DNA from: a virus
Taxonomy: Duplodnaviria > Caudoviricetes
IMG/VR virus record: IMGVR_UViG_3300020463_000001
Span: 128,001 to 192,000 of that record
DNA length: 64,000 nt
Direction: 5' to 3' (one strand)
Below, piece after piece: positions 93-27,145 of this stretch. Below the pieces are notes generated by a model. It had not been told where the DNA came from. It worked only from the letters and a program-made list of their open reading frames with translations, and made no database searches. Made by a program: the position numbers and the translations under genes. The first letter of the stretch is position 1. Every line of letters starts with the position of its first letter.

Positions 93-2147
93 ATGCCATT
101 TCAAGTAAGTCCCGGCGTTAATGTATCAGAAGTAGACCTAACTACTACCACCCCAGCAGCTGCGGTATCCGTAGGTGCTTTGGTGGGTCAATTCGCAAAA
201 GGCCCAGTAGGTGAAATAGTTACGGTTTCTAGTGAAACTGAATTGGCGCAAGTTTTTGGTAAACCAACAGACCAAAACTACAGATCTTTTTACACCGCCG
301 CGAATTTCTTGGCATACGCTGGAAACTTGCAAGTTTCTAGAGTTGTTGGAAGCGGAACTTTAAACGCGGTCGCAGGAGTCCCTACTACATCGACTCCTAC
401 TCTTGCAACAGAAACAGGAACTGCCGTCGTTGCAATAAGTGGAGAAACATTCACTGGTAACGGTGCAGATACAACATTTACTCTTTCTAGAGTTACTTAC
501 GACGAAACTCTGACAGTGACTGTGGACGGAACTGCTACTACAGATTTCACAGTAGACGGAACTACACTGACATTTGACTCTGCTCCTACTGGAACTATTC
601 TTGTAGATGTTCCTGCGAGAAGCATATTTGAAGTTTCTCAAACAGTTGGGGCAAATGACACAGTAGAAGTTGACGGATTTAGTATTGGTGTTGATTTTAC
701 TGTTAGTGGTCAATCAATTGACTTCTCAACCGCTCCGGTAAGTGATATCACAATTACAGTCAAAGGCCCAACAGTTACATCATTTGCATATACCCCAGTA
801 TTGGTTGGATCTTCTGACGATGTTTCATTTGGTTCCGGTCAAGCAGGCGGGGCCGAGTTTGTTGCAAGAACCCCTGGCCCTCACGGTAATTTTCTGAAGG
901 TTTATATGGTCGATGCAGGAACTTTCTCAAGTTTATCCTCGACTTTTCAAAATGAATTTTCTGGAGCTCCAAGTGCAGGCGAAGTTCACGTTCTTGTATG
1001 TTCTTATGAGTCTGGAACTGATAAGGTTGTCGAGAAGTTTTCATTCCTGTCAAAGGCGTCTGATGGAAAGCTCGAAGACGGAACAAATATCTACTATGTG
1101 GATTATGTCAATGAATATTCAGATTTTATTTTTGTAGTAAATCACACAACAGAAGGAACAAACTGGGGAACTCCCGCATTAGGTACAACCTTTGCAACTT
1201 TAAGTTCTATGGTTTATGTAGAATTTTCTGGTGGCACTGAAGGTTCTGTTCCAACAGCAGGCGAAGCAATATCAGGATATGGAGTTTTTGAAGACTCAGA
1301 AACTACAGATGTTGCGTTAGTAATGTCTGGAGAGTGGGGAGATATTACAGATGGTAATACGGTACAAACACATATCATCGACACAGTTGCGGCTGGTCGA
1401 AGAGATGCAGTCGCTCTGATATCTGCACGATATGTAGATTGTGCAGGATCATCTCCAGCCTCTGATGTTATTAGTTATTTCACTTCTACAATGACTAGTA
1501 ACAGCAATTATGCATTTGTAGATTCAAACTACAAGTATCAATACGACAAGTACAATGATAAGTATCGATGGATTCCGCTAAATGGAGACATCGCTGGTCT
1601 TATGGCAAGAACTGACAGCGAAAGAGATCCTTGGTTCTCTCCTGCTGGCTTCAACCGTGGGGTTATCAAGAATGTTGTTAAAACGGCTTGGACACAAACG
1701 AAGGCAAACAGAGACGATCTTTACAGAAAAGCCTTAAATCCCGTTGTTACATTCCCAGGCCAAGGTACAGTTCTTTATGGTGACAAGACGTTCACTACAA
1801 AACCAAGTGCCTTTGACAGAATAAATGTAAGAAGATTGTTTATTGTTCTAGAGAAAACTATTGCAACAGCATCTAAGTTTACATTATTCGAAATGAATGA
1901 TGAATTTACGAGATCACAATTTGTATCTCTGGTAGAACCTTTCTTGAGAGAAGTAAAGGGCCGAAGGGGAATTTTTGATTTTAAGGTGGTTTGTGACTCA
2001 ACAAATAATACTGCTCAGATAGTAGATAGTAATGAATTTGTGGGTGACATCTTTATCAAGCCTGCAAGATCTATCAACTTCATCCAGTTAAACTTTGTTG
2101 CTACAAGAACTGGAACAGATTTTGAAGAAATTGTTGGATCTGTATAA
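93..2147 (+). CDS. gp18: tail sheath protein
   Basis: N-term SPGVNVSEVDLT; C-term PWFSPAGFNRG, RINVRRLF, IKPARSINFIQLNF; first gene of the T4 18-23 block. Confidence 0.97.
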   Translation: MPFQVSPGVNVSEVDLTTTTPAAAVSVGALVGQFAKGPVGEIVTVSSETELAQVFGKPTDQNYRSFYTAANFLAYAGNLQVSRVVGSGTLNAVAGVPTTSTPTLATETGTAVVAISGETFTGNGADTTFTLSRVTYDETLTVTVDGTATTDFTVDGTTLTFDSAPTGTILVDVPARSIFEVSQTVGANDTVEVDGFSIGVDFTVSGQSIDFSTAPVSDITITVKGPTVTSFAYTPVLVGSSDDVSFGSGQAGGAEFVARTPGPHGNFLKVYMVDAGTFSSLSSTFQNEFSGAPSAGEVHVLVCSYESGTDKVVEKFSFLSKASDGKLEDGTNIYYVDYVNEYSDFIFVVNHTTEGTNWGTPALGTTFATLSSMVYVEFSGGTEGSVPTAGEAISGYGVFEDSETTDVALVMSGEWGDITDGNTVQTHIIDTVAAGRRDAVALISARYVDCAGSSPASDVISYFTSTMTSNSNYAFVDSNYKYQYDKYNDKYRWIPLNGDIAGLMARTDSERDPWFSPAGFNRGVIKNVVKTAWTQTKANRDDLYRKALNPVVTFPGQGTVLYGDKTFTTKPSAFDRINVRRLFIVLEKTIATASKFTLFEMNDEFTRSQFVSLVEPFLREVKGRRGIFDFKVVCDSTNNTAQIVDSNEFVGDIFIKPARSINFIQLNFVATRTGTDFEEIVGSV

Positions 2148-2154
2148 TAATCGT

Positions 2155-2162
2155 TATAAATA
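2155..2162 (+). promoter_or_regulatory. T4-type late promoter
   Basis: TATAAATA before gp19; AGGAG RBS follows. Confidence 0.85.
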
Positions 2163-2186
2163 TAGTTAAAATTTTAGGAGAAAACA

Positions 2187-2738
2187 ATGGCGTTTGATAT
2201 CGCATCATTCAAATCAAGATTGAGAAACGGTGGAGCAAGACCTAATCTATTTGAAGTAGAAGTAGGAAATCCAATTGACGGTTCTGCAGATGACGTATTT
2301 CGTTTTCATTGCAGAGCGGCCCAGTTACCAGCATCCACAATACCCGCAATTGATGTTCCTTATTTTGGAAGACAGGTGAGGATTGCCGGAAACAGAACAT
2401 TTGAGCCTTGGACGGTTACAATTCTTAATGATGAAGATTTCTCAGTAAGAACTGCACTTGAAAACTGGATGGGTGGAATTAATGATCATGCATCAAATTT
2501 ACAGTTTAACAGTCAAACATCTTATAAGAATAGAGATTCTAAAGTCGTTCATTATGGTAAAGACGGTTCAGTTATTGCAACATACAAGTTTGTTGGTATT
2601 TTCCCAACAGAACTTGGTGCGGTAGAGCTCGCGTGGGATTCTAATGATCAGATTGAAGAATTTACTTGCACATTTGCATATGACTATTGGTTGCATGAAG
2701 AAGCAGCCGGAGGCCTGAGGGTTACCGTAAGTCTATAA
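2187..2738 (+). CDS. gp19: tail tube protein
   Basis: GGARPNLFEV, GRQVRIAGNRTFEPWTVT, IEEFTCTFAYDYW; synteny. Confidence 0.96.
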   Translation: MAFDIASFKSRLRNGGARPNLFEVEVGNPIDGSADDVFRFHCRAAQLPASTIPAIDVPYFGRQVRIAGNRTFEPWTVTILNDEDFSVRTALENWMGGINDHASNLQFNSQTSYKNRDSKVVHYGKDGSVIATYKFVGIFPTELGAVELAWDSNDQIEEFTCTFAYDYWLHEEAAGGLRVTVSL

Positions 2739-2769
2739 TACTCCCGAATTTACACAACTATTTTTTCAT

Positions 2770-2777
2770 TATAAATA
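2770..2777 (+). promoter_or_regulatory. T4-type late promoter embedded in a 17-bp inverted repeat (2747-2789)
   Basis: TATAAATA upstream of gp20. Confidence 0.8.
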
Positions 2778-2803
2778 GTTGTGTAGATTTAAGGTGATGT
2801 TAA

Positions 2804-4372
2804 ATGGCGATTAAACTTTTTGGATTCAATATATCTAGGAGTTCGGAGGAGAATAAACAAGTTCGTTCCTTTGTTCCTAGAGAAGATCAAACCGATGACG
2901 GCGCATTAACAGTTCAGAGTGGGTTCTCCGGAACCTACTTGGAATTGGAAAACAATGCTAAGTCAGATTCAGAACTTATAAACAAATATCGTGAAATGGT
3001 GATGCATCCAGAAGTGGAGATTGCCGTTGACGATATCACATCAGAAGCGATAGTTCATGACACTATCGAATACCCTGTCAAAATTCACACAAAGAATATT
3101 AAGAGTGCTTCTCTGAGAAAAACTATTGAAGAGGAATTTAATAATATTCTAAAACTTCTCAAGTTTAAAGAAAGAGGATATGACATTTTCCGCAACTGGT
3201 ACGTTGACGGAAGACTATTCTATCATATCATCATTAACGAGTCCAAACCAAAAGATGGAATTAGAGAACTTCGAAGTATCGATCCTCGCAAAATCAAAAA
3301 AGTAAAACAAGTTAAGAAAGACAAAGTTTCTCCGCAAGATCCGGTGAATACTGCAGGGATAGTTTCTAAACAAGAAGAGTATTATGTCTACAATCAAAAG
3401 GGAATTGTAAATGCGGAAGGTGTTTCTGGACTTCCAATTACTGTCGATTCTATTTGTCATATCACATCAGGACTTAAAGATGGCCGCAGAAACTATGTTG
3501 TAAGTCATCTCCATAAAGCAATCAAACCCCTCAATCAGTTGAAATTGGTAGAAGACTCCGTTGTCATTTACAGATGGACAAGAGCACCAGAAAGAAGAGT
3601 ATTCTATATCGATGTTGGTAACTTACCAAAACAGAAAGCAGAACAATATCTTTCTGAAATAATGACCAAACACAAGAACAAGATTGTCTATGATGGAACT
3701 ACTGGTGAAGTCAGGGACGATAGAAAACATCTATCAATGTTAGAAGATTACTGGTTCCCTCGTAGAGAAGGTGGGCGAGGAACAGAGATTGAAACATTGC
3801 CCGGCGGTACAAACCTAGGCGAGATGGATGATGTCAATTACTTCCTCAAGAAATTATACAAGTCTCTTAATGTTCCTATCTCAAGATTAGAACCAGAGAA
3901 TACTATGCAGTTGGGAAGGGCTCAGGAGATATCTAGAGACGAATACAAATTCAACAGATTTATCATACGACTGCGAGATAAATTTTCAGATCTATTTACC
4001 GATCTATTGAAAAAACAATTAGTTCTCAAAGGTTATATCAGTCTTGATGAATGGAAAGAGATGAGTCAAGATATTATATTTGACTTTACTCAAGACTCAT
4101 ATTATACAGAAATTAAGAATGCAGAAATGCTGCGAGATAGGATTGCCTTGGTTGCTGAAATGCAAGACTACATTGGTAAGTACTATTCTAATGAATGGGT
4201 GAGAAAAAATATTCTTAAGATGACTACATCCGAAATTAAACAGATGGATACTCAGATTAAGAAAGAATTGGAAAGTGAAGAACCTCAAGACCAACCGCCG
4301 TCAGGAGAAGACGGTGAAGGTGGAGAAGAGGGTGGAAACGATCAACAAGATAATGAACAAAATTTCATATAG
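2804..4372 (+). CDS. gp20: portal vertex protein
   Basis: RAPERRVFYIDVGNLPKQKAEQY and MLEDYWFPRREGGRGTEIETLPGG are T4 portal motifs. Confidence 0.98.
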   Translation: MAIKLFGFNISRSSEENKQVRSFVPREDQTDDGALTVQSGFSGTYLELENNAKSDSELINKYREMVMHPEVEIAVDDITSEAIVHDTIEYPVKIHTKNIKSASLRKTIEEEFNNILKLLKFKERGYDIFRNWYVDGRLFYHIIINESKPKDGIRELRSIDPRKIKKVKQVKKDKVSPQDPVNTAGIVSKQEEYYVYNQKGIVNAEGVSGLPITVDSICHITSGLKDGRRNYVVSHLHKAIKPLNQLKLVEDSVVIYRWTRAPERRVFYIDVGNLPKQKAEQYLSEIMTKHKNKIVYDGTTGEVRDDRKHLSMLEDYWFPRREGGRGTEIETLPGGTNLGEMDDVNYFLKKLYKSLNVPISRLEPENTMQLGRAQEISRDEYKFNRFIIRLRDKFSDLFTDLLKKQLVLKGYISLDEWKEMSQDIIFDFTQDSYYTEIKNAEMLRDRIALVAEMQDYIGKYYSNEWVRKNILKMTTSEIKQMDTQIKKELESEEPQDQPPSGEDGEGGEEGGNDQQDNEQNFI

Positions 4373-4383
4373 GAGTGTAAAAA

Positions 4384-4641
4384 ATGACTGACAATGAAGA
4401 AAATATAAATAATGAAGTAGATGCGACAACAAGTATTGTCGATGACATTGTTAATGGTGAATTATCAGATGCTCAGAATACAATCAAAGGTATACTGAGT
4501 CAAAATATGGCCGGCGAAATCGAAGGTCATAAACAAGAATTTGCGGGCACTCTTTTTCAAGATGAACCAGAAGTTGAGGTAGAAGATACCGAAGAAACAT
4601 CTGCAGAAGTCGAGACAGAGGTTGCAGAAACCGAAGAATAG
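4384..4641 (+). CDS. gp67: acidic prohead core protein (gp67-like)
   Basis: Small, very acidic, immediately after the portal gene; mainly positional. Confidence 0.65.
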   Translation: MTDNEENINNEVDATTSIVDDIVNGELSDAQNTIKGILSQNMAGEIEGHKQEFAGTLFQDEPEVEVEDTEETSAEVETEVAETEE

Positions 4642-4649
4642 GAATTACT

Positions 4650-4919
4650 ATGAAGACTTTTTCTCAATTTTTAGAAGATGATTTAGACGAAGCGGTAAAA
4701 CGTAAAGTTGTTATCCGTGGCGGAAAACGCAAGATTAAGTTTAAGTCTGACAGGGCCGGATACAAAGTTGACGGCAATAAAAGAGAAGTCAAAATTTCTG
4801 CATCAGATAAAGTCAAAATGAGTTTGAGAAATAAAAAGTCTGCTCGAAAGAGAAAGGGCAAAGTTGCTATTTCTAATACTCGCAGAGCAAGGTCAATGGC
4901 CAAACGTACAGGAACATAG
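4650..4919 (+). CDS. gp68: basic prohead core protein (gp68-like)
   Basis: Lys/Arg-rich, MKTFSQFLE..LDE N-terminus, precedes gp21. Confidence 0.75.
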   Translation: MKTFSQFLEDDLDEAVKRKVVIRGGKRKIKFKSDRAGYKVDGNKREVKISASDKVKMSLRNKKSARKRKGKVAISNTRRARSMAKRTGT

Positions 4920-18800: not shown

Positions 18801-19352
18801 ATGGCCGAAAAAAAGAAAAACGCACACTATGTAGATAACAAAAAACTCCTTGCTGCGATGATAGAATTTCGTAATTCTGTTATTGAGGCGAAAGAGAATG
18901 ATAAACCAAGGCCCAGAATTCCTAATTACATTGGAGAATGTATTATGAAGATTTCTGAGCATTTGTCGTATCGTCCTAATTTTATTAACTACACATACAA
19001 AGATGAAATGATTTCCGATGGGATAGAGAATTGTCTCCTATACATAGATAACTTCAATCCAGAGAAATCTAAAAATCCCTTCGCATATTTTACTCAGATA
19101 ATCTACTATGCCTTTATAAGAAGAATGCAGAAAGAGAAGAAACAAACTTATGTTAAGTATAAGTCTCTTGAACGTCATGTCTTGGAAGATGATATACTTG
19201 AGGCCGGTGGAGTGACTAAGAAAAGTTATCTAGAGTTTATGCAGAATAATATGTCTGGATTTATCGAAGATTTTGAGAAATCACAGAAAGTCAAAAAGAC
19301 CAGAGCAAAAGCAAAGAAAAAGGAACAGAATGAAAATAGCCCTCTTGACTGA
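18801..19352 (+). CDS. gp55: late-transcription sigma factor
   Basis: HYVDNKKL, YIGECIMKI, RPNFINY, NFNPEKSKNPFAYFTQI; start moved to ATG 18801 after AGAGGA. Confidence 0.96.
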   Translation: MAEKKKNAHYVDNKKLLAAMIEFRNSVIEAKENDKPRPRIPNYIGECIMKISEHLSYRPNFINYTYKDEMISDGIENCLLYIDNFNPEKSKNPFAYFTQIIYYAFIRRMQKEKKQTYVKYKSLERHVLEDDILEAGGVTKKSYLEFMQNNMSGFIEDFEKSQKVKKTRAKAKKKEQNENSPLD

Positions 19353-20376
19353 TACTCATTTTGGAGCTAGGGGTGATTCCCTAGTCTTCTTTGATTACAT
19401 GATGGAGTTCTATGACAATGTGTTTTTTCCATACCTGTCAGAGAACAATATTACAACTATGATTCATCTTGGAGATGTTGTGGATAGACGAAAGTTTATC
19501 AACTTCAATATTCTTCATGGCATGAATAGTCGGTTTATGAAACGATTACAAGACGATAAGATAGAATCTCATATCATTATTGGGAACCATGATACTTACT
19601 TTAAGAATACGAATGATATCAATTCTATGAATGAACTGATAGACTTCAACCACGAGTACTCTCCTAAAGTCTATTCGGATCCGGTTACTTTGAATTTTGA
19701 CGGCAGAGATATTTGTTTTATGCCGTGGATCAACTCTGGTAACTACACCGATTGTAGATCTCACATTAAAGATACCAAAGCAAAAACTTTATTCGGACAT
19801 CTTGAAATTGCCGGATTTGAAATGAGTCGCGGAATCAAGTGCGAAGATGGATTTGATATTCATATGTTTAAAAAGTTTGATTTAGTTTGCTCTGGACATT
19901 TCCATCATAAATCAAACAACGGAAATATTCATTATCTTGGAAGCCCATACGAAACAACTTGGATAGATTATAATGATCCAAGAGGCTTTCACATATATGA
20001 TACGGATACAAATGAAATTGAATTTATTCAGAACCCATATCGTATGTTTCATAAGATATATTATGATGAAGAAAACCTTGACCGAATAAATTACTCGACA
20101 TACAATCAGAAATATGTTAAGGTGATTGTCAAAAACAAAACAAAGCAACATTTATTGGATAATCTAATAGATGAATTATACAACAATGATGTCGTTGATG
20201 TATCTGTAGTTGACGATACATACGAGTTTGAAGGGATGGATGAGACACAATCTATAGAAGATACTATGTCTCTTCTCTCTGGATACATAGATGATTATAA
20301 TTTAGATTTGGATAAGAATCGGCTTAAAGGTTTGATTCAAGATTTATACATTACTGCGTTAAGAGAGCCTGCCTAG
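19330..20376 (+). CDS. gp47: recombination endonuclease subunit (SbcD/Mre11-like)
   Basis: KIALLTDTHFG, HLGDVVDRR, GNHD, SGHFH; start moved to ATG 19330. Confidence 0.96.
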   Translation: MKIALLTDTHFGARGDSLVFFDYMMEFYDNVFFPYLSENNITTMIHLGDVVDRRKFINFNILHGMNSRFMKRLQDDKIESHIIIGNHDTYFKNTNDINSMNELIDFNHEYSPKVYSDPVTLNFDGRDICFMPWINSGNYTDCRSHIKDTKAKTLFGHLEIAGFEMSRGIKCEDGFDIHMFKKFDLVCSGHFHHKSNNGNIHYLGSPYETTWIDYNDPRGFHIYDTDTNEIEFIQNPYRMFHKIYYDEENLDRINYSTYNQKYVKVIVKNKTKQHLLDNLIDELYNNDVVDVSVVDDTYEFEGMDETQSIEDTMSLLSGYIDDYNLDLDKNRLKGLIQDLYITALREPA

Positions 20377-22094
20377 TGTTAGAATTTCAAAAAATACGGT
20401 GGAAGAATTTTCTTTCCACTGGTGATAACTTTACTGAAATATTATTTGACAAATCTCCAACCACATTAATCCTTGGTGCAAATGGAGCCGGAAAATCTAC
20501 GGTTCTGGATGCACTCACCTTTGGATTGTTTGGTAAACCCTTTCGAAAGATAAACAAACCTCAGTTGGCGAACTCTGTCAATGAGAAAGATTGTCTTATT
20601 GAGATTGAGTTCAAGATAGGAAAGACTCAGTATAAGATTCGTAGAGGTATCAAGCCTGGCATCTTTGAGATATATCATAATAAAAAGATGATCAATCAGG
20701 ATTCCAAGATAAAAGACTATCAAAAATATCTAGAAGATAATATTCTCAAACTTAATTTTAAGTCTTTTACTCAAACAGTGATCTTGGGATCTGCTACTTT
20801 TGTTCCGTTCATGCAACTTTCGGCAAAAGATCGAAGAGACATCATAGAAGATCTATTAGACATTAAGATATTCTCTTCTATGAATGAGATACTGAAATCC
20901 AGATTAATAGACCATAAAGAAAATTTAAGAGAAACCGGCAATGAAAGAAATAATATAGACAATCAGATCCACTTACAAGAATCTAGCATAGAAGAAATCA
21001 AGAAGGATAGAAAGAAACTTATACAAACTTCTAAGAAAAAGATAGAAGAGTATCAATTAAAGATTGATGAAAATGATTCTTGTATAGAAAAACTTACCGC
21101 AAAGATTGGTATGTTAAATGATACACTTGTTGAATTAAAACCAGTACAAAAGAAAATATCCAAGATGGATAGTATTAGTGCTGGACTGACTTCTAAGATT
21201 AAGTCTCTTAAAGAAGATCAAGAGTTCTTTCACGATATTGATAATTGTCCTACCTGTAAACAAGATGTTGATGCATCTCATAAAGAAATGATGATTGCAG
21301 AAAGGAAAGATAAACAAAAAGAAATAGAACAGGCCATAGAAGATTTTAAGAGTGAATATGAAGTTATTAATGCAAGGATGGATAAATTATTAAATACTCA
21401 GAATAAAGTATCTAATCTTACTGCAGATATATCCGAAAAAACTTCTCACAATAAAGGCCTCAAAAGTTCTATAAAGGATTACGAAAGAGAAGTAGAAGAA
21501 CTTGAATCGACAGATACATCTACCACTAAGATGCGAAAAGATCTCAAGAAGTTTACTGATCAGAAAAATAGGATAGAAAGGATAAGAGAAGAACTTTTGG
21601 AAGAAAGAGAATACTTGAATGTTGCTTCTACACTTCTTAAGGATGGTGGTATTAAGACTTCTATCATCAAATATTATCTTCCCATTATGAATGGTCTGAT
21701 AAACAAGTATCTTCATCAAATGGATTTCTATGTTAACTTTACAATGGATGAAAACTTCTCAGAGAATATTAAGTCTCGCAATAGAGAAAACTTTTCTTAC
21801 AGCTCATTCTCCGAAGGTGAAAAGATGCGAATAGACCTGGCTCTACTCTTCACTTGGAGAGAAGTCGCGAAGATGAAGAATAGTGTTAATACAAATCTTT
21901 TGATACTGGATGAAGTATTTGATAGTTCTCTAGATAGTAATGGAACAGATGAGTTCTTAAAACTTCTCAATCAACTTGGCGGAAATAATGTATTTGTTAT
22001 TTCACACAAAGGAGAGATCCTCTACGATAAATTTAGAAGTATCATCAAGTTTGATAAAATCAAAAACTTCAGTAAAATAGTGGAAGAGAAGTAA
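20376..22094 (+). CDS. gp46: recombination ATPase subunit (SbcC/Rad50-like)
   Basis: GANGAGKS, CPTC zinc hook, FSEGEKMRIDLAL, LDEVFD. Confidence 0.97.
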   Translation: MLEFQKIRWKNFLSTGDNFTEILFDKSPTTLILGANGAGKSTVLDALTFGLFGKPFRKINKPQLANSVNEKDCLIEIEFKIGKTQYKIRRGIKPGIFEIYHNKKMINQDSKIKDYQKYLEDNILKLNFKSFTQTVILGSATFVPFMQLSAKDRRDIIEDLLDIKIFSSMNEILKSRLIDHKENLRETGNERNNIDNQIHLQESSIEEIKKDRKKLIQTSKKKIEEYQLKIDENDSCIEKLTAKIGMLNDTLVELKPVQKKISKMDSISAGLTSKIKSLKEDQEFFHDIDNCPTCKQDVDASHKEMMIAERKDKQKEIEQAIEDFKSEYEVINARMDKLLNTQNKVSNLTADISEKTSHNKGLKSSIKDYEREVEELESTDTSTTKMRKDLKKFTDQKNRIERIREELLEEREYLNVASTLLKDGGIKTSIIKYYLPIMNGLINKYLHQMDFYVNFTMDENFSENIKSRNRENFSYSSFSEGEKMRIDLALLFTWREVAKMKNSVNTNLLILDEVFDSSLDSNGTDEFLKLLNQLGGNNVFVISHKGEILYDKFRSIIKFDKIKNFSKIVEEK

Positions 22095-22282
22095 TGGATG
22101 GCGTGGATCTAGAAATCAAAAGGAAGGATTCTACTCTGTTGATAAAAGTCAACAAAGAAGAGAAGAAAAAGTTTATTGCTCTGTGTGAGTTGAATGATTC
22201 CAGTGCATCCAGAGAGATTCGCAGATTTATGAAAGAATATATTAATAATTTTTCGGTGGAAATAAAACTTGACAACGGCTAG
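22094..22282 (+). CDS. ribbon-helix-helix (CopG/Arc-like) DNA-binding protein
   Basis: LLIKVNKEEKKKFIALCELNDSSASREIRRFMKEYI fits strand-helix-helix; TAATG-coupled to gp46. Confidence 0.6.
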   Translation: MDGVDLEIKRKDSTLLIKVNKEEKKKFIALCELNDSSASREIRRFMKEYINNFSVEIKLDNG

Positions 22283-22297
22283 AAAATTTGAGACAAT
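22269..22297 (+). promoter_or_regulatory. possible sigma70-type promoter for the modification cassette
   Basis: TTGACA-N17-GACAAT (imperfect -10). Confidence 0.4.
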
Positions 22298-23492
22298 GGT
22301 TCCCATGTATCAACCTTATACTCTAAAGGATGTGTTTGCAGCATCCGCACAGAATAAATTTAACGTCATATCTACATTCGCTGGCGGTGGTGGATCTAGT
22401 ACTGGTTATCGTCTTGCTGGCGGTAATGTATTGTGTGTAAATGAATTTGTCGAAGAGGCACAAAATACCTACGCAGAAAACTATCCAAACACTCCTATAC
22501 TACCTAACGATATTAAGGAGTTGAGTGGATCAGACTTTTTAGATATTGTCGGATTGGGTGTGGGCGAGTTAGATATTCTTGATGGTTCGCCACCGTGTTC
22601 TGCATTTTCAGTTGCAGGAAAACTATCTCACAATGTTAAAAAGGAAGAGATGGTTGATTTGTTTGGAGAGACAACTATAGTCAATGTGTCTGGAAAACAT
22701 TCAGATGGTTGGGGTCAGACTAAGAATTATTCTGACGGAAAGATGGTAGAGAATATCGAAGATCTTTTCTTTGAGTTCCTTAGAGTTGCAAATGATATCA
22801 AACCCAAAGTGATTGTTGCGGAGAATGTTAAAGGATTGACCATAGGCGAGGCGAAACAATACTATAATAAAATTCTCAACGAGTTCGAAAAGATAGGGTA
22901 TGATGTTTCATCTCAAGTCATGGACGCAAGATATTATGGTGTTTCTCAGACAAGAACTAGGGTAATCTTTATCGGCATTAGACACGATATTACTGAGAAG
23001 GCTGGTTTTAACTTTATGACTGTTGGAAATATTTTTCCGCAACCGTCCAGAAAAATAATTCCCTTGATGGATGCCCTAGTAGATTTAGAATACGATCAAG
23101 AAGAAGTTGATTATCTCACAGAGAAGTTTACTAAAACTGCGTATTGGTTACAGACCGGAAGTAAGATGGAAGACGATCCAAAGAAAGTTTTGACTGGAAT
23201 GGATTATCATCCGAAAGGACATCACTTTAACCTCAAAAGAGTGTCCAGATACGCACCAGCACCCACGCTAACGGCGATGGGGAGTAATGACACTACAGCA
23301 GGTGCATTCCACTGGGCCGAACCTAGAAAACTCACTCTGGGGGAATTAAAGAGGATTCAGAGTTTACCTGATGACTTCAAGTTGACCGGAAAATGGAACC
23401 AGAAATCAGAAAGAATCGGTAGAATGGTTCCGCCAAAAATGATGCAGTCAATTGCTGCGTCTATCTATGAAAATGTATTGGAGAAAATATGA
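22296..23492 (+). CDS. C5-cytosine DNA methyltransferase-family protein, probable carboxymethyltransferase (CmoX-like)
   Basis: Motif I FAGGGG, IV GSPPC, VI ENVKG, VIII QTRTR, IX RKLT..E..RIQ; motif X reads GRMVPP instead of GN(A/S)VP; start is ATG 22296 or 22305. Confidence 0.85.
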   Translation: MVPMYQPYTLKDVFAASAQNKFNVISTFAGGGGSSTGYRLAGGNVLCVNEFVEEAQNTYAENYPNTPILPNDIKELSGSDFLDIVGLGVGELDILDGSPPCSAFSVAGKLSHNVKKEEMVDLFGETTIVNVSGKHSDGWGQTKNYSDGKMVENIEDLFFEFLRVANDIKPKVIVAENVKGLTIGEAKQYYNKILNEFEKIGYDVSSQVMDARYYGVSQTRTRVIFIGIRHDITEKAGFNFMTVGNIFPQPSRKIIPLMDALVDLEYDQEEVDYLTEKFTKTAYWLQTGSKMEDDPKKVLTGMDYHPKGHHFNLKRVSRYAPAPTLTAMGSNDTTAGAFHWAEPRKLTLGELKRIQSLPDDFKLTGKWNQKSERIGRMVPPKMMQSIAASIYENVLEKI

Positions 23493-24037
23493 GCAACGTA
23501 AGCCAATTGATCGCTAAACATAATGGTGATGATCCTTTTAACGATGAAGCCCAAAGAAACGCGCTTAAAAGTTTCCTTCGCACAGACCTTGATTTTGTCA
23601 GATTTATTTTAGACTATGCAGAAATAAAAAGTGACGCTAAGCCATGTGATATTATAGATGACCCTTTAGGAGAAAAAAGAGTAGACTTGGGAATAATAGA
23701 TAAAAATTCTAATGTTCGATGTTTAGTTGAAGTTGATTACTATTTCAAATGGGATCCATTTTGGCCAAAAAACTATAAAAATGCTCACGCATTAGAGAGA
23801 AAAATAAAATATTGGAGGGGCAAAAATATCCCATATATTGGTTGTACTTTTAGTAAAAATCTCGATAAGATGATAGTAATTACAGATGAACTTATAACAG
23901 AGTATATGCACACCAAACGAAAAAAGTGGGTAGAACTTCATGGCGAGTTGGTAGAAGATGTTTTCATTAGTATACCCCCCTTCAGAGCGTTTAAGTTTGG
24001 AGATTGGCAAGACGACGAATTACGGAGAGTTTCATAA
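23489..24037 (+). CDS. putative PD-(D/E)xK-fold nuclease-like protein
   Basis: DDPLG..RVDLGI...LVEVD pattern; ATGA/TAATG-coupled to both neighbours. Confidence 0.45.
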   Translation: MSNVSQLIAKHNGDDPFNDEAQRNALKSFLRTDLDFVRFILDYAEIKSDAKPCDIIDDPLGEKRVDLGIIDKNSNVRCLVEVDYYFKWDPFWPKNYKNAHALERKIKYWRGKNIPYIGCTFSKNLDKMIVITDELITEYMHTKRKKWVELHGELVEDVFISIPPFRAFKFGDWQDDELRRVS

Positions 24038-24723
24038 TGGCAGACTTTACTTTTGCACACAGAAAAGAGGGCTTCGATGCTCACATAGATGCATCTATTC
24101 GTCACTACTCATCACTTCATGATGATATAGTTGCAATGTCTAGATACTTTGTAGAGAATGATACCAGTGTAGTTGATATTGGTTGCTCTACTGGAAAAAC
24201 TCTAGGGGCAATGATTGACCAGAATAAGGAATCGGCTCCTAATGCACAGTATCATGGAGTTGAAAACGCAGATGGATTTGCGGAAGATATGAAATCCAGA
24301 GAAGAAGAATATGTTGATTCTAATCTCAGTTTACATTTTCAAGATGTAAGAAACTTTGTATTTCCTGTTGATTCTTCATTCATAACGAGCATATTTACTT
24401 TACAGTTTATTCCAAAACGAGATCGACAATCTATTCTGGATTCGATATATGATTCTCTTCTTCCCGGCGGAGCATTCGTTTTTTCTGAGAAGACTTATGC
24501 CTCATCTCCAGAACTAGAACAGATACTCACATTCCTCTTTTATGACCATAAAAGAAAAGAGTTTTCCTGTGAAGATATTATGGACAAAGAATATACTTTG
24601 AGATCAATGCTGAAACCAATGCACTGGGACGATTTACTATCCATGATGTACGAGGCAGGATTCCAAGAAGTTCAACCTTTTTGGAGAAATCATCTATTCG
24701 TAGGAGCAATCGCTATAAAATAG
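24037..24723 (+). CDS. cmoA: CmoA-like carboxy-S-adenosylmethionine synthase (class I SAM-binding fold)
   Basis: FD.HI..SI..Y, VVDIGCSTG, FTLQFI, LLPGGAFVFSEK, HKR, EAGF..V..FW parallel E. coli CmoA; start ATG 24037. Confidence 0.78.
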   Translation: MADFTFAHRKEGFDAHIDASIRHYSSLHDDIVAMSRYFVENDTSVVDIGCSTGKTLGAMIDQNKESAPNAQYHGVENADGFAEDMKSREEEYVDSNLSLHFQDVRNFVFPVDSSFITSIFTLQFIPKRDRQSILDSIYDSLLPGGAFVFSEKTYASSPELEQILTFLFYDHKRKEFSCEDIMDKEYTLRSMLKPMHWDDLLSMMYEAGFQEVQPFWRNHLFVGAIAIK

Positions 24724-24768: not shown

Positions 24769-24797
24769 TTGACATTCGCCAACTAGCCCCTTAGAAT
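24769..24797 (+). promoter_or_regulatory. sigma70-type early/middle promoter
   Basis: TTGACA-N17-TAGAAT. Confidence 0.85.
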
Positions 24798-24826
24798 AGC
24801 TGTATAGTTTGTTGATAGAGAACCAA

Positions 24827-27145
24827 ATGACCGAAGTTACCGTCTCCAAGAATTCCAAGAGTCTTCTTGCTCGTCTACTTGCGGAAGAAAACATTCGCGT
24901 CGAACACTCTTCAGAAGTTGTGACAGCGAGTTTCAATGTAGAGACTCGACTATTACTTCTTCCTATCTGGAAAGATGAATCATATACTCCTGATATATAT
25001 GACCTTTTTGTTGGCCATGAAGTTGCTCACGCATTATACACTCCAAGTGATCTAGAAGTTCTAGAAGAAGCCATGAAGCGATCCAACCATGCGTTTCTTA
25101 ACGTAGTGGAAGATGCGCGAATTGAGAAGTTAATGAAGCGAAAGTTTCAAGGTCTTCAGGCTCCTTTCAAGAATGCGTATCAAGATCTTTACGAGAGAGA
25201 CTTTTTCAGTCTTAAGGGTCAACCTATTCAATCTCGCAATTTCATTGACCGCATCAATCTCTTCTTTAAGTTGCGATATGCGCTGAACCTATACGCACCA
25301 TCCATCTTCAATTCAGAAGAAATGACTTTCATTCGCAGGATCGATGATGCAGAAACTTATGTGGAAGTTGCGGATATCTGTGAAGATCTTTACAAGTATC
25401 TGAAAGAGAAGCAAGAAGAACAACAGCAACAGGCACAAATGTCTCCCAGTTCTTCTAATTCTGAAGGAGAACCTCAAGAAGGCGAGACTTATGAAATGCC
25501 TTCTGATGATGAAGAAGAAGAATCTGAGGGGTCAACAGAGGCTTCTGGATCCGGAGAAGAAGAATCAGAAGAAGGGCCCAAGGAATCTTCTGGATCATCT
25601 TCTGAAGAACAACCAGAAGAGTCTGGAGAAGAGACCGAAGAACAATCTACCGCATCATCTTCTGAAGAAAAGAAAAATCCTCAAGATGGAAATCAGTCAA
25701 GCGTCTTTACCGATGAGTTCACTTCAGAGACTAGTGAGTCTCTAGAAGAAAATCTCAAGGAGATGGTTAATGAAAATACTCGCGAAAGTGTTTACATCAA
25801 TCTTCACAGTAACTATGAACTAGAGAAGTATGTCCATGACTATACAGAAGTTCAGGCAGACTTTGAACGCGAGGTATCTGCAGTAGAAGTACTTCATCGT
25901 CAACAATATAGTCACGGTGATGCACCAGAGTTAAATTTTCCTTCTCTGAAAGAATTGATCTCAGAAAACTCAAAGACCATTTCTTATCTTGTAAAAGAAT
26001 TCGAAATGAAGAAAGCTGCTCGCGCACAGGCATTGAGTTCAGAATCCAAGACTGGTGCGATCAACACTTCCAAGTTGTGGAGTTATCAAGTCAACGAAGA
26101 TATTTTCCTTCGTAAGACTAACACTCCAGACGGCAAGAATCATGGTATGGTTATGGTAGTAGACTGGAGTGGATCTATGGGATCTACTGTTCTTAACACT
26201 GTCAAACAGACCATCGTTCTCGCAACATTTTGTAAGAGAGTTGGAATTCCTTTTGAGGTCTACAACTTTACCAGTGTTAATAAGAAGGCTGTTCCGGAAC
26301 CAAGTATCTTGCCATTATCGGAAGGAGACATTCTTCTAAGGAGTATCGCATTGCGAAATACGTTATCCAGTAGAATGAGTGGCAAGGTCTTTAATCAGGC
26401 CTGTCAAAACTATCTGAACATTGCTGCGATAGTAGGGAATGCGATAGGGGCATACTACATTCCTTATCGATTGATGCATACTGCAGTCTCTGAGGATCAG
26501 TTTGGTGCCACTCCTACTAATCAGGCACTGGTTCTTCTAGACAGAGTGATTCCTAAGTTCCGCAAAGAAAATTCTTTAGAGAAGGTTAACTTAGTTCTAT
26601 TGACTGATGGAGAACCTACCGATCATCTTACTTATAAGAAAATAGATGATGACTATCCAACGGAACGAACAACTAGATATGCTTCGAACATTTATGTGCG
26701 AGATACATCTACTAATGAGACTTATCGCATGGTTGCTGAGAATGAGTATAGTGGAATTGACGGTTTCGACTCTTCTAAGTTTCTTATCAAGATCTTGCGA
26801 GAGAAGCATGGGATCAATTCTATTGGATTCTATCTCTTGAATTCTCATGGGAGAACTGAGATTAAACGAGTCATTCAAAGATTTGTTAACTACAATCTAC
26901 AACCATACATGGAAGAGTATCGCACTCTGCGAAAAGAATTCAACAAGAATAACTTCTTTGTTGCGACTAACTCAGGACACAATGAGTACTATATCATCAA
27001 TGCGAAGGTAGATCCTAAGACTGATGAGTTGGATGTAAATTCATCTATGTCAAAGGCTGCAATCGCAAAAAGCTTCATGAGTCACAATAGATCTAAGGTT
27101 GTAAACCGACAATTATTAAATAAATTTGTCGATTTAGTAAAATAG
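24827..27145 (+). CDS. zincin-motif / VWA (CobT-like) protein, MoxR partner
   Basis: HEVAH, acidic linker, MIDAS DWSGS, LLTDGE; start ATG 24827. Confidence 0.85.
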   Translation: MTEVTVSKNSKSLLARLLAEENIRVEHSSEVVTASFNVETRLLLLPIWKDESYTPDIYDLFVGHEVAHALYTPSDLEVLEEAMKRSNHAFLNVVEDARIEKLMKRKFQGLQAPFKNAYQDLYERDFFSLKGQPIQSRNFIDRINLFFKLRYALNLYAPSIFNSEEMTFIRRIDDAETYVEVADICEDLYKYLKEKQEEQQQQAQMSPSSSNSEGEPQEGETYEMPSDDEEEESEGSTEASGSGEEESEEGPKESSGSSSEEQPEESGEETEEQSTASSSEEKKNPQDGNQSSVFTDEFTSETSESLEENLKEMVNENTRESVYINLHSNYELEKYVHDYTEVQADFEREVSAVEVLHRQQYSHGDAPELNFPSLKELISENSKTISYLVKEFEMKKAARAQALSSESKTGAINTSKLWSYQVNEDIFLRKTNTPDGKNHGMVMVVDWSGSMGSTVLNTVKQTIVLATFCKRVGIPFEVYNFTSVNKKAVPEPSILPLSEGDILLRSIALRNTLSSRMSGKVFNQACQNYLNIAAIVGNAIGAYYIPYRLMHTAVSEDQFGATPTNQALVLLDRVIPKFRKENSLEKVNLVLLTDGEPTDHLTYKKIDDDYPTERTTRYASNIYVRDTSTNETYRMVAENEYSGIDGFDSSKFLIKILREKHGINSIGFYLLNSHGRTEIKRVIQRFVNYNLQPYMEEYRTLRKEFNKNNFFVATNSGHNEYYIINAKVDPKTDELDVNSSMSKAAIAKSFMSHNRSKVVNRQLLNKFVDLVK

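Follow-up and report, generated by a model that had tools for sequence, protein, structure and literature searches.

A putative ligase-less 5-carboxymethylcytosine locus carrying a mobile homing-endonuclease-like gene in a T4-like cyanophage

We analyzed a 64,000-nucleotide stretch of viral DNA (the window) that comprises bases 128001-192000 of IMG/VR record IMGVR_UViG_3300020463_000001, a complete virus genome of 200,733 bp with direct terminal repeats, a G+C content of 38.2%, and the gene content of a T4-like cyanophage. The system under study lies on the plus strand of the window and comprises (i) cmoX (22305-23492), encoding a predicted cytosine C5-carboxymethyltransferase of 395 residues, (ii) ORF182 (23489-24037), an open reading frame (ORF) of 182 codons, and (iii) cmoA (24037-24723), encoding a predicted carboxy-S-adenosylmethionine (Cx-SAM) synthase of 228 residues; a small ribbon-helix-helix (RHH)-like ORF precedes them. 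We judge that this locus is probably the published CmoA-CmoX pathway for 5-carboxymethylcytosine (5cxmC) without its ligase, with ORF182 as a mobile endonuclease gene outside the pathway. An initial annotation, made from the sequence alone, had proposed that a CmoA and an unusual C5-methyltransferase furnish this phage with 5cxmC. Its placement of the four ORFs, of both stop/start overlaps (ATGA at 23489 and TAATG at 24037), and of an AGA codon at 23421-23423 agrees with ours, and its central inference is right but had already been published (December 2025), with the locus confirming a known kind of CmoA-CmoX system. What reaches beyond the published work is a ligase-less complete genome with two cultured relatives that are ligase-less too, as well as a mobile PD-(D/E)XK family of T4-like cyanophages that lacks annotation.

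Both enzymes have characterized counterparts in Synechococcus phage S-B43, where CmoA (SpCmoA) makes Cx-SAM from S-adenosylmethionine (SAM) and prephenate, CmoX (SpCmoX) uses Cx-SAM to carboxymethylate C5 of cytosines within GC motifs, and a ligase resembling Asn synthetase, CmoY, attaches glycine (Yang et al., Nat Commun 2025, PMC12783734). In vitro, SpCmoX needs no partner, being active as a monomer, and it accepts only Cx-SAM, whose carboxylate is contacted in the 1.9-Å structure 8YF3 by R350, the replacement for N304 of M.HhaI; an R350N mutant is inactive (PMC12783734). The window CmoX is 59% identical to SpCmoX over the full length (E 1e-170), matches the crystal structure PDB 8YF3 with an E of 3.2e-144, and contains a C5-methyltransferase domain (PF00145, 194.5 bits). 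We placed its start at ATG 22305, the position that aligns with M1 of SpCmoX, with ATG 22296 and TTG 22269 as upstream alternatives. The catalytic Cys resides in an SPPC motif (S95-P96-P97-C98) that is invariant in our CmoX alignment, and the ENV and QxRxR motifs are kept. Further, the residues that contact the adenine and ribose of Cx-SAM (F25, E47, F48, and D69) are the same, with the same numbers, as in SpCmoX and are likewise invariant in the alignment. In motif X, Arg373 of ERIGRMVPP, encoded by the AGA codon at 23421-23423 (codon 373 from ATG 22305), aligns with R350 in ERVGRMVPP of SpCmoX and hence stands in place of M.HhaI N304, which bears out the significance that had been attached to the GRMVPP sequence. 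These comparisons strongly support the window methyltransferase as a clear SpCmoX orthologue and predicted Arg-motif-X carboxymethyltransferase. The combination of SPPC, an Arg in motif X, and an adjacent CmoA cleanly selects such orthologues.

A basic residue at the motif-X Asn also lets a C5-methyltransferase use Cx-SAM in M.MpeI N374K (PMC12783734). That enzyme differs from CmoX in being engineered, in carrying Lys rather than Arg, and in targeting CG. It reportedly still accepts SAM. The window CmoX, which is the sole C5-methyltransferase in the complete genome, probably targets GC dinucleotides by analogy with SpCmoX, which would amount to ∼6,064 sites, or ∼16% of cytosines. The GC dinucleotide odds ratio in the genome is 0.83, which is not distinctive (CG, 0.77; TA, 0.80). 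A CmoX-like C5-methyltransferase of another kind is encoded at positions 3525-4715 of the related IMG/VR locus L016, as well as in L017; it is 41% identical and keeps the SPPC motif, has a Leu at the motif-X position (ARIGLMVAP), and has an ORF182-family gene and DNA polymerase B immediately upstream, on a 5-kb contig that contains no cmoA.

The cmoA product shares 52% identity with SpCmoA over 228/231 residues (E 2e-79), and matches phrog_4752 (E 4e-57) and the PDB CmoA entries 1im8 and 4gek (E 2e-18). Its best NCBIfam family is TIGR00740 CmoA, by 20 orders of magnitude. Of the ligand residues listed for Escherichia coli CmoA (EcCmoA; PMC3663124), a phmmer alignment to 4gek finds six kept in the window protein, namely Y39 (Y24), D62 (D47), G64 (G49), S66 (S51), N90 (N77), and F137 (F124), while D89 is replaced by E76 and N132 by I119, a position at which SpCmoA has Leu. 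By its similarity to the proven SpCmoA, cmoA is supported as a gene for a Cx-SAM synthase orthologue, and the proposed pairing of CmoA with an Arg-motif-X C5-methyltransferase for making 5cxmC is, as a prediction, strongly supported by homology to the S-B43 enzymes.

Several observations weigh against this pathway assignment. First, the source phage is uncultured, and its enzyme steps are deduced from homology. Second, motif IV of CmoX is followed by a 17-residue insertion, which is not present in SpCmoX. Third, the TIGR00740 score of the CmoA protein (94.4 bits) is below the equivalog cut-off of 193.3, and its NF011995 score is 69.5, against a cut-off of 285. Fourth, R199 of EcCmoA, which makes the carboxylate salt bridge (PMC3663124), aligns with Glu185 of DKEYTLR, with Arg189 following four residues (one helical turn) later. 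This last point had been raised as a caveat in the initial annotation, and the alignment it described is correct; the arrangement does not, however, tell active from inactive proteins, because the biochemically active SpCmoA shares it, reading DKEKELR at the same segment with the same Glu and the later Arg. A Glu at this position would accordingly appear to be a trait of the active phage CmoA clade. One could nonetheless argue, from the sub-threshold NCBIfam score, the Glu, and additional matches to Methyltransf_25, _12, and _11, that the CmoA-like protein is an unrelated SAM-dependent methyltransferase and its neighbor an ordinary 5-methylcytosine methylase. We regard this as most improbable: SpCmoA, 52% identical to the protein, shares these features although its rapid Cx-SAM synthesis is proven (kcat of 2.33 per s, ten times the rate of the E. 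coli enzyme; PMC12783734), SpCmoX with the same Arg refuses SAM, and cmoX and cmoA are linked in hundreds of phage contigs. The CmoX insertion itself (NVKKEEMVDLFGETTIV, window 22617-22667) is also absent in L005, and L010 and L023 have a different, longer insertion nearby.

In the mechanism that we propose, CmoA would turn SAM and host prephenate into Cx-SAM, and CmoX, with its motif-X Asn replaced by Arg, would move the carboxymethyl group to C5 of cytosines in phage DNA by the usual Cys-addition mechanism; without a ligase, the mark would stay bare 5cxmC. In published work, 5cxmC gives resistance to HhaI in vitro, which is evidence for an anti-restriction role (PMC12783734).

The next step of the S-B43 pathway was sought in the complete genome. 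Neither the SpCmoY protein as query nor PF00733 found a CmoY-type ligase there, whereas S-B43, searched with PF00733 as a positive control, yielded its CmoY. When all six-frame ORFs of the genome were scanned with a CmoY profile (local hmmsearch --max), the best E was 0.5, and the AMP-binding (PF00501), RimK/ATP-grasp (PF08443), and PP-loop (PF01171) families have no match in the complete genome. The earlier remark that no recognizable amide ligase lies near the locus can therefore be extended to the whole genome. Because a recognizable ligase is missing from the complete genome, the mark is most likely left, as far as gene content can predict, as bare 5cxmC and not converted to the glycyl amide as in S-B43. 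The cultured phages S-CRM01 and RN05-S resemble the window phage in this regard: their CmoX proteins are 58-60% identical to that of the window and have an adjacent CmoA, and PF00733 finds no match in their complete genomes, which carry cmoA and cmoX only. They differ in gene order (cmoA then cmoX) and in having neither ORF182 nor the RHH-like ORF.

It could still be that an unrecognized enzyme encoded elsewhere in the genome, other than an Asn-synthetase-type ligase, derivatizes 5cxmC further. Many genes of the genome are without a family assignment, among them that for a neighboring 778-residue protein, a candidate for such an enzyme that counts against a bare final mark; moreover, S-B43 virion DNA contains only the glycyl amide and no free 5cxmC, and ligase clusters with unknown amine substrates have been noted (PMC12783734). 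We consider further derivatization unlikely, given the four ligase families without a match and the fact that 28 of the 80 nearest CmoX loci, together with S-CRM01 and RN05-S, are ligase-less as well. Since native S-B43 DNA has yielded only the glycyl amide, ligase-less phages are the place to look for bare 5cxmC, and S-CRM01, RN05-S, and the window phage are suited to asking whether it exists as a natural final base.

To place the locus among its relatives, we used a CmoX-centered sample, consisting of the 80 nearest IMG/VR CmoX loci (70-97% identity to the window CmoX). Their layouts are cmoY-cmoX-cmoA in 31, cmoX-cmoA in 28, cmoX-cmoA-cmoY in nine, cmoX alone in 11, and cmoX-cmoA followed by an ORF182 homologue in one. 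The ligase-less layout is thus not new; it is common among these loci, is present in S-CRM01 and RN05-S, and is implicit in the published census of 5,615 candidate CmoX proteins (defined by SPPC and R350), 4,257 CmoA proteins, 2,251 ligases, and 1,660 ParB-domain proteins (PMC12783734). The cmoX-only loci (including L079-L082, L089, L093, L095, L097, and L101) contain no cmoA within ∼4 kb downstream and belong mostly to one clade with RVGRMVPP or RIGRMVPP as motif X. They may use a distant cmoA copy or host CmoA; E. coli CmoA sufficed in published work (PMC12783734).

The CmoX and CmoA histories are incongruent when the window genes (22305-24723) are compared with those of L005, L010, and L023. 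With L005, the identity is 78% for CmoX and 54% for CmoA, whereas with L010 it is 49% for CmoX and 59% for CmoA. This incongruence indicates recombination inside the cassette. In comparison with S-B43, the window phage has the same two enzymes with the same SPPC motif, motif-X Arg, and cofactor contacts, and both phages are T4-like cyanophages. The order in S-B43, however, is cmoA-cmoY-cmoX and its cassette follows a primase-helicase gene, whereas in the window cmoX precedes cmoA, a mobile nuclease gene lies between them, CmoY is missing from the genome, and the island is located between gp46 and gp45. Upstream of a cmoY-cmoX-ORF186-cmoA cassette in L005 (162-1547; also in L004 and L009), there is a 461-residue ORF without a Pfam match that, by eye, has DGGHRKR near its N terminus and an HNH-like H..H..N near its C terminus; it may be related to the ParB-domain proteins published near CmoX.

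ORF182, the third gene of the system, had been labeled nuclease-like, and its predicted fold supports the label. The sequence has no match in Pfam, NCBIfam, PHROG, or PDB, nor by tblastn against the phage collection. Homologues were found as four clusters by a word-indexed search and as 71 by a profile search of 1.84 billion representatives; a narrower family alignment as query led to five IMG/VR loci, and none of 36 family members (0/36) matches Pfam. An AlphaFold model built from the 36-sequence alignment reached a predicted local distance difference test score (pLDDT) of 92, compared with 73, and weak Foldseek scores, for an earlier model from five sequences. Nearly all of the top 50 structural matches of the later model are PD-(D/E)XK nucleases. 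They include the D212 nuclease (Z 9.5; 133 residues, root-mean-square deviation of 4.1 Å, 11% identity), Hjc resolvases (Z 6.3-7.3), NhoI (Z 6.3), the homing endonuclease I-Ssp6803I (Z 6.1), and MspI, DpnI, and HinP1I (Z 5.1-5.9). Foldseek additionally matched the SPARDA DREN domain (E 6.6e-5), and ESM Atlas comparisons matched PF24579 PDDEXK_14 (TM 0.57/0.73) and DUF4365 (TM ∼0.5). The best of these matches, D212 of fusellovirus SSV1 (PDB 2W8M), is likewise a small viral PD-(D/E)XK protein; it differs in its low identity, in coming from an archaeal virus, and in having a function that is itself unsettled.

Among the 36 members of the family alignment, D19, D66, and K105 are invariant, W88, P93, L102, R104, and G171 are nearly so, and positions 81 and 83 read E/D-x-D/E in most. 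In the model, D66 precedes one β strand, E81-V-D83 lies on the next strand, and R104-K105 resides on the following helix. The E-V-D sequence would be the BamHI-type D...ExE variant of the PD-(D/E)XK motif. Taken together, the modeling indicates that ORF182 is a PD-(D/E)XK nuclease-fold protein that is likely to be catalytically competent. ORF182 also defines an unannotated PD-(D/E)XK family, homing-endonuclease-like in T4-like cyanophages. Two other functions that were considered, a prephenate-supplying chorismate mutase and a 5cxmC-processing enzyme, were ruled out by the fold. A further proposal is that ORF182 is an inactive DNA-binding accessory that aids CmoX, for example in loading or specificity, as its translational coupling to cmoX and the missing canonical catalytic Lys of (D/E)xK might suggest. 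This is very improbable in view of the conservation of three acidic residues and R104-K105 across the family, the activity of SpCmoX by itself, and the fact that most cassettes do not contain ORF182 and that family members occur far from any methyltransferase.

The mobility of ORF182 was shown by comparisons between related loci. Seen from ORF182 itself, every close homologue sits between cmoX and cmoA, as a conserved third pathway gene would. The CmoX-centered sample rules this out: ORF182 is missing from the cmoX-cmoA junction throughout the 80 nearest loci, 68 of which have cmoA directly after cmoX. In L065, whose CmoX is 97% identical in amino-acid sequence, exactly window 23489-24034 is missing, a clean 546-bp indel between flanks of 5.2 and 4.0 kb at 88-90% nucleotide identity; at the L065 junction, the cmoX stop (TAA) is followed two bases on by a TTG start of cmoA. 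A second clean, ORF-sized indel comprises L005 3602-4156, which is missing in L094, and a third comprises L091 6311-6871 (after cmoA and before uvsX), which is missing in L096; the three cases are independent. Further, the well-supported branches of a 76-sequence CmoX tree require five or more gains or losses among seven insert-bearing rows.

Consistent with a recent arrival, the nucleotide identity between the window and L022, the closest insert-bearing relative, is 97.3% for ORF182, compared with 90.1% for the 3' part of cmoX and 93.3% for cmoA. Synonymous codon differences number 8/182 in ORF182 and 59/372 in the flanks (Fisher p = 4.6e-5), from which we conclude that the insert is younger than its surroundings. 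The G+C content inside ORF182 dips to 0.31-0.34, versus 0.37-0.44 beside it. A test of ORF182-CmoX co-divergence gave no usable signal, since the CmoX and CmoA histories already disagree with each other.

ORF182 is single-copy in the genome, and family relatives occupy at least six further sites in T4-like phages, namely (i) between DNA polymerase B and a C5-methyltransferase (L016), (ii) between a pair of ORFs, each matching a portion of an N6_N4 methyltransferase (L026), (iii) between gp44 and gp62, (iv) after a CobS-like AAA_5 ATPase, (v) after cmoA and before uvsX (L091), and (vi) beside DruA-like and ParB-like genes (L020). In L026 (1843-4595), the family gene (3436-3957) and a 103-residue ORF lie between a 430-residue ORF that covers N6_N4_Mtase profile positions 1-111 and a 216-residue ORF that covers positions 170-220, an arrangement that looks like a methyltransferase gene split by an insert. 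In L020 (1774-3997), a distant family member follows a DruA-family (PF14236) ORF and a 331-residue ParB-like ORF (WDGLRR, by eye).

On account of the clean indels, the forced gains and losses, the young age, and the many insertion sites, ORF182 is best read as a freestanding, mobile homing-endonuclease-like gene that is optional and stands outside the modification pathway, and it should not be annotated as a part of that pathway. In mechanistic terms, the gene would have landed precisely at the junction of the cmoX stop and the cmoA start, using their start and stop signals; its product would cut the insert-free allele of co-infecting relatives site-specifically, a specificity that we infer, and the gene would then be copied by recombinational repair. 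ORF182 resembles the seg and mob homing genes of T4, in that these are small nuclease genes that are present or absent between collinear relatives and occupy many sites between replication genes. The T4 seg and mob genes encode GIY-YIG or HNH enzymes, not PD-(D/E)XK proteins, whereas I-Ssp6803I is a PD-(D/E)XK homing endonuclease and matches the fold of the ORF182 model. To none of these does ORF182 have detectable sequence similarity, and its homing role is deduced. If that role is correct, ORF182 offers a tractable example in which a mobile nuclease must work on DNA that is carboxymethylated.

This homing-type reading of ORF182 must be balanced against three points: (i) the gene is translationally coupled to both of its neighbors, as classical T4 homing endonuclease genes usually are not, (ii) it reads E-V-D without the canonical Lys of (D/E)xK, and (iii) several family members adjoin DNA methyltransferases, of more than one class, as would be expected of a restriction partner. 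The first and third points could instead be explained if ORF182 supplied the nuclease of a restriction-like module keyed to carboxymethylation, one that cuts cytosine-unmodified DNA of the host or competitors, with the phage's own 5cxmC DNA protected. T4 EndoII and EndoIV, together with hydroxymethylcytosine, form an analogue of such a module. The restriction-endonuclease fold, with matches that include the modification-sensing NhoI, DpnI, and Eco15I, would suit this explanation, as would the coupling to both cmoX and cmoA and the family members beside a C5-methyltransferase (L016) and between the N6_N4 methyltransferase-matching ORFs (L026). It is disfavored, however, because nearly all cassettes do without the nuclease, which is missing at the junction in all 80 nearest ones and in the 97%-identical sister, and because family members occur without an adjacent methyltransferase, between gp44 and gp62 or after the CobS-like ATPase. 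Moreover, ORF182 is younger than its flanks, and a nuclease whose cutting depends on a GC context of 2 bp has no precedent known to us. We thus rate a restriction-like function as unlikely too, while allowing it some weight in view of the translational coupling and the several methyltransferase neighbors. Rather unlikely, in our estimate, is the broader proposition that the ORF182 family reads the cytosine-modification state and that the cassette is a mobile carboxymethyl-based restriction-modification or host-shutoff module; were it true, the family's repeated C5- and N6/N4-methyltransferase neighbors would reflect partnership and not chance.

The fourth gene, the RHH-like ORF (22094-22282, plus strand; 62 residues), is coupled to gp46 by a stop/start overlap, TAATG. 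The product matches phrog_19878 with an E of 3.9e-10, and its Pfam RHH_9 score of 17.1 bits is under the cut-off of 23.4. By tblastn, it was found only in L065 among >100 related loci, and it had no match in the phage collection; the L010 cassette, at the same gp46 boundary, does not contain it. It is a small gene confined to this lineage, with no place in the conserved cassette, and its proposed role as the cassette regulator finds no support: the domain score is sub-threshold, and the gene is kept next to cmoX only in the window phage and L065. For the same reason, the distinctive four-gene architecture that had been proposed does not hold, ORF182 being an optional insert, the RHH-like ORF being lineage-specific, and ligase-less pairs being already present in S-CRM01 and RN05-S.

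The four ORFs, all on the plus strand, fill the interval from gp46 to the gene for the 778-residue protein. Upstream are gp47 (Metallophos; 19273-20376) and a gene for a gp46-like SMC/AAA recombination nuclease subunit (20376-22094, plus strand; Pfam AAA_23, SMC_N, and AAA_29), which forms the upstream flank of the island. Its downstream end is marked by a sigma-70-like promoter match on the plus strand, TTGACA-N17-TAGAAT (24769-24797), which is a consensus match only; promoter-like sites around the locus are not enriched, with 14 found versus 12.9 expected from shuffles. Another match, TTGACA-N17-GACAAT with an extended TG (22269-22297), lies within the 3' end of the RHH-like ORF and stops 7 nucleotides ahead of the cmoX ATG at 22305. 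It would imply a nearly leaderless cmoX transcript, and such sites do not exceed the shuffle expectation in this region.

The gp46-gp45 interval is a hypervariable island, and the whole cassette had no match by megablast against the phage collection. L022 has ∼1.7 kb extra (1668-3345) between cmoA and the next gene that is absent from the window. On the 3' side of the island in the window, the gene for the 778-residue protein is followed by those for an AAA_5 ATPase and then gp45. The 778-residue ORF (24809-27145), which has no Pfam match, is acidic and rich in Ser and Glu over a long stretch and has a VWA/MIDAS-like motif, DWSGSM, and together with the next-door AAA_5 ATPase it resembles a CobT/CobS-like pair.

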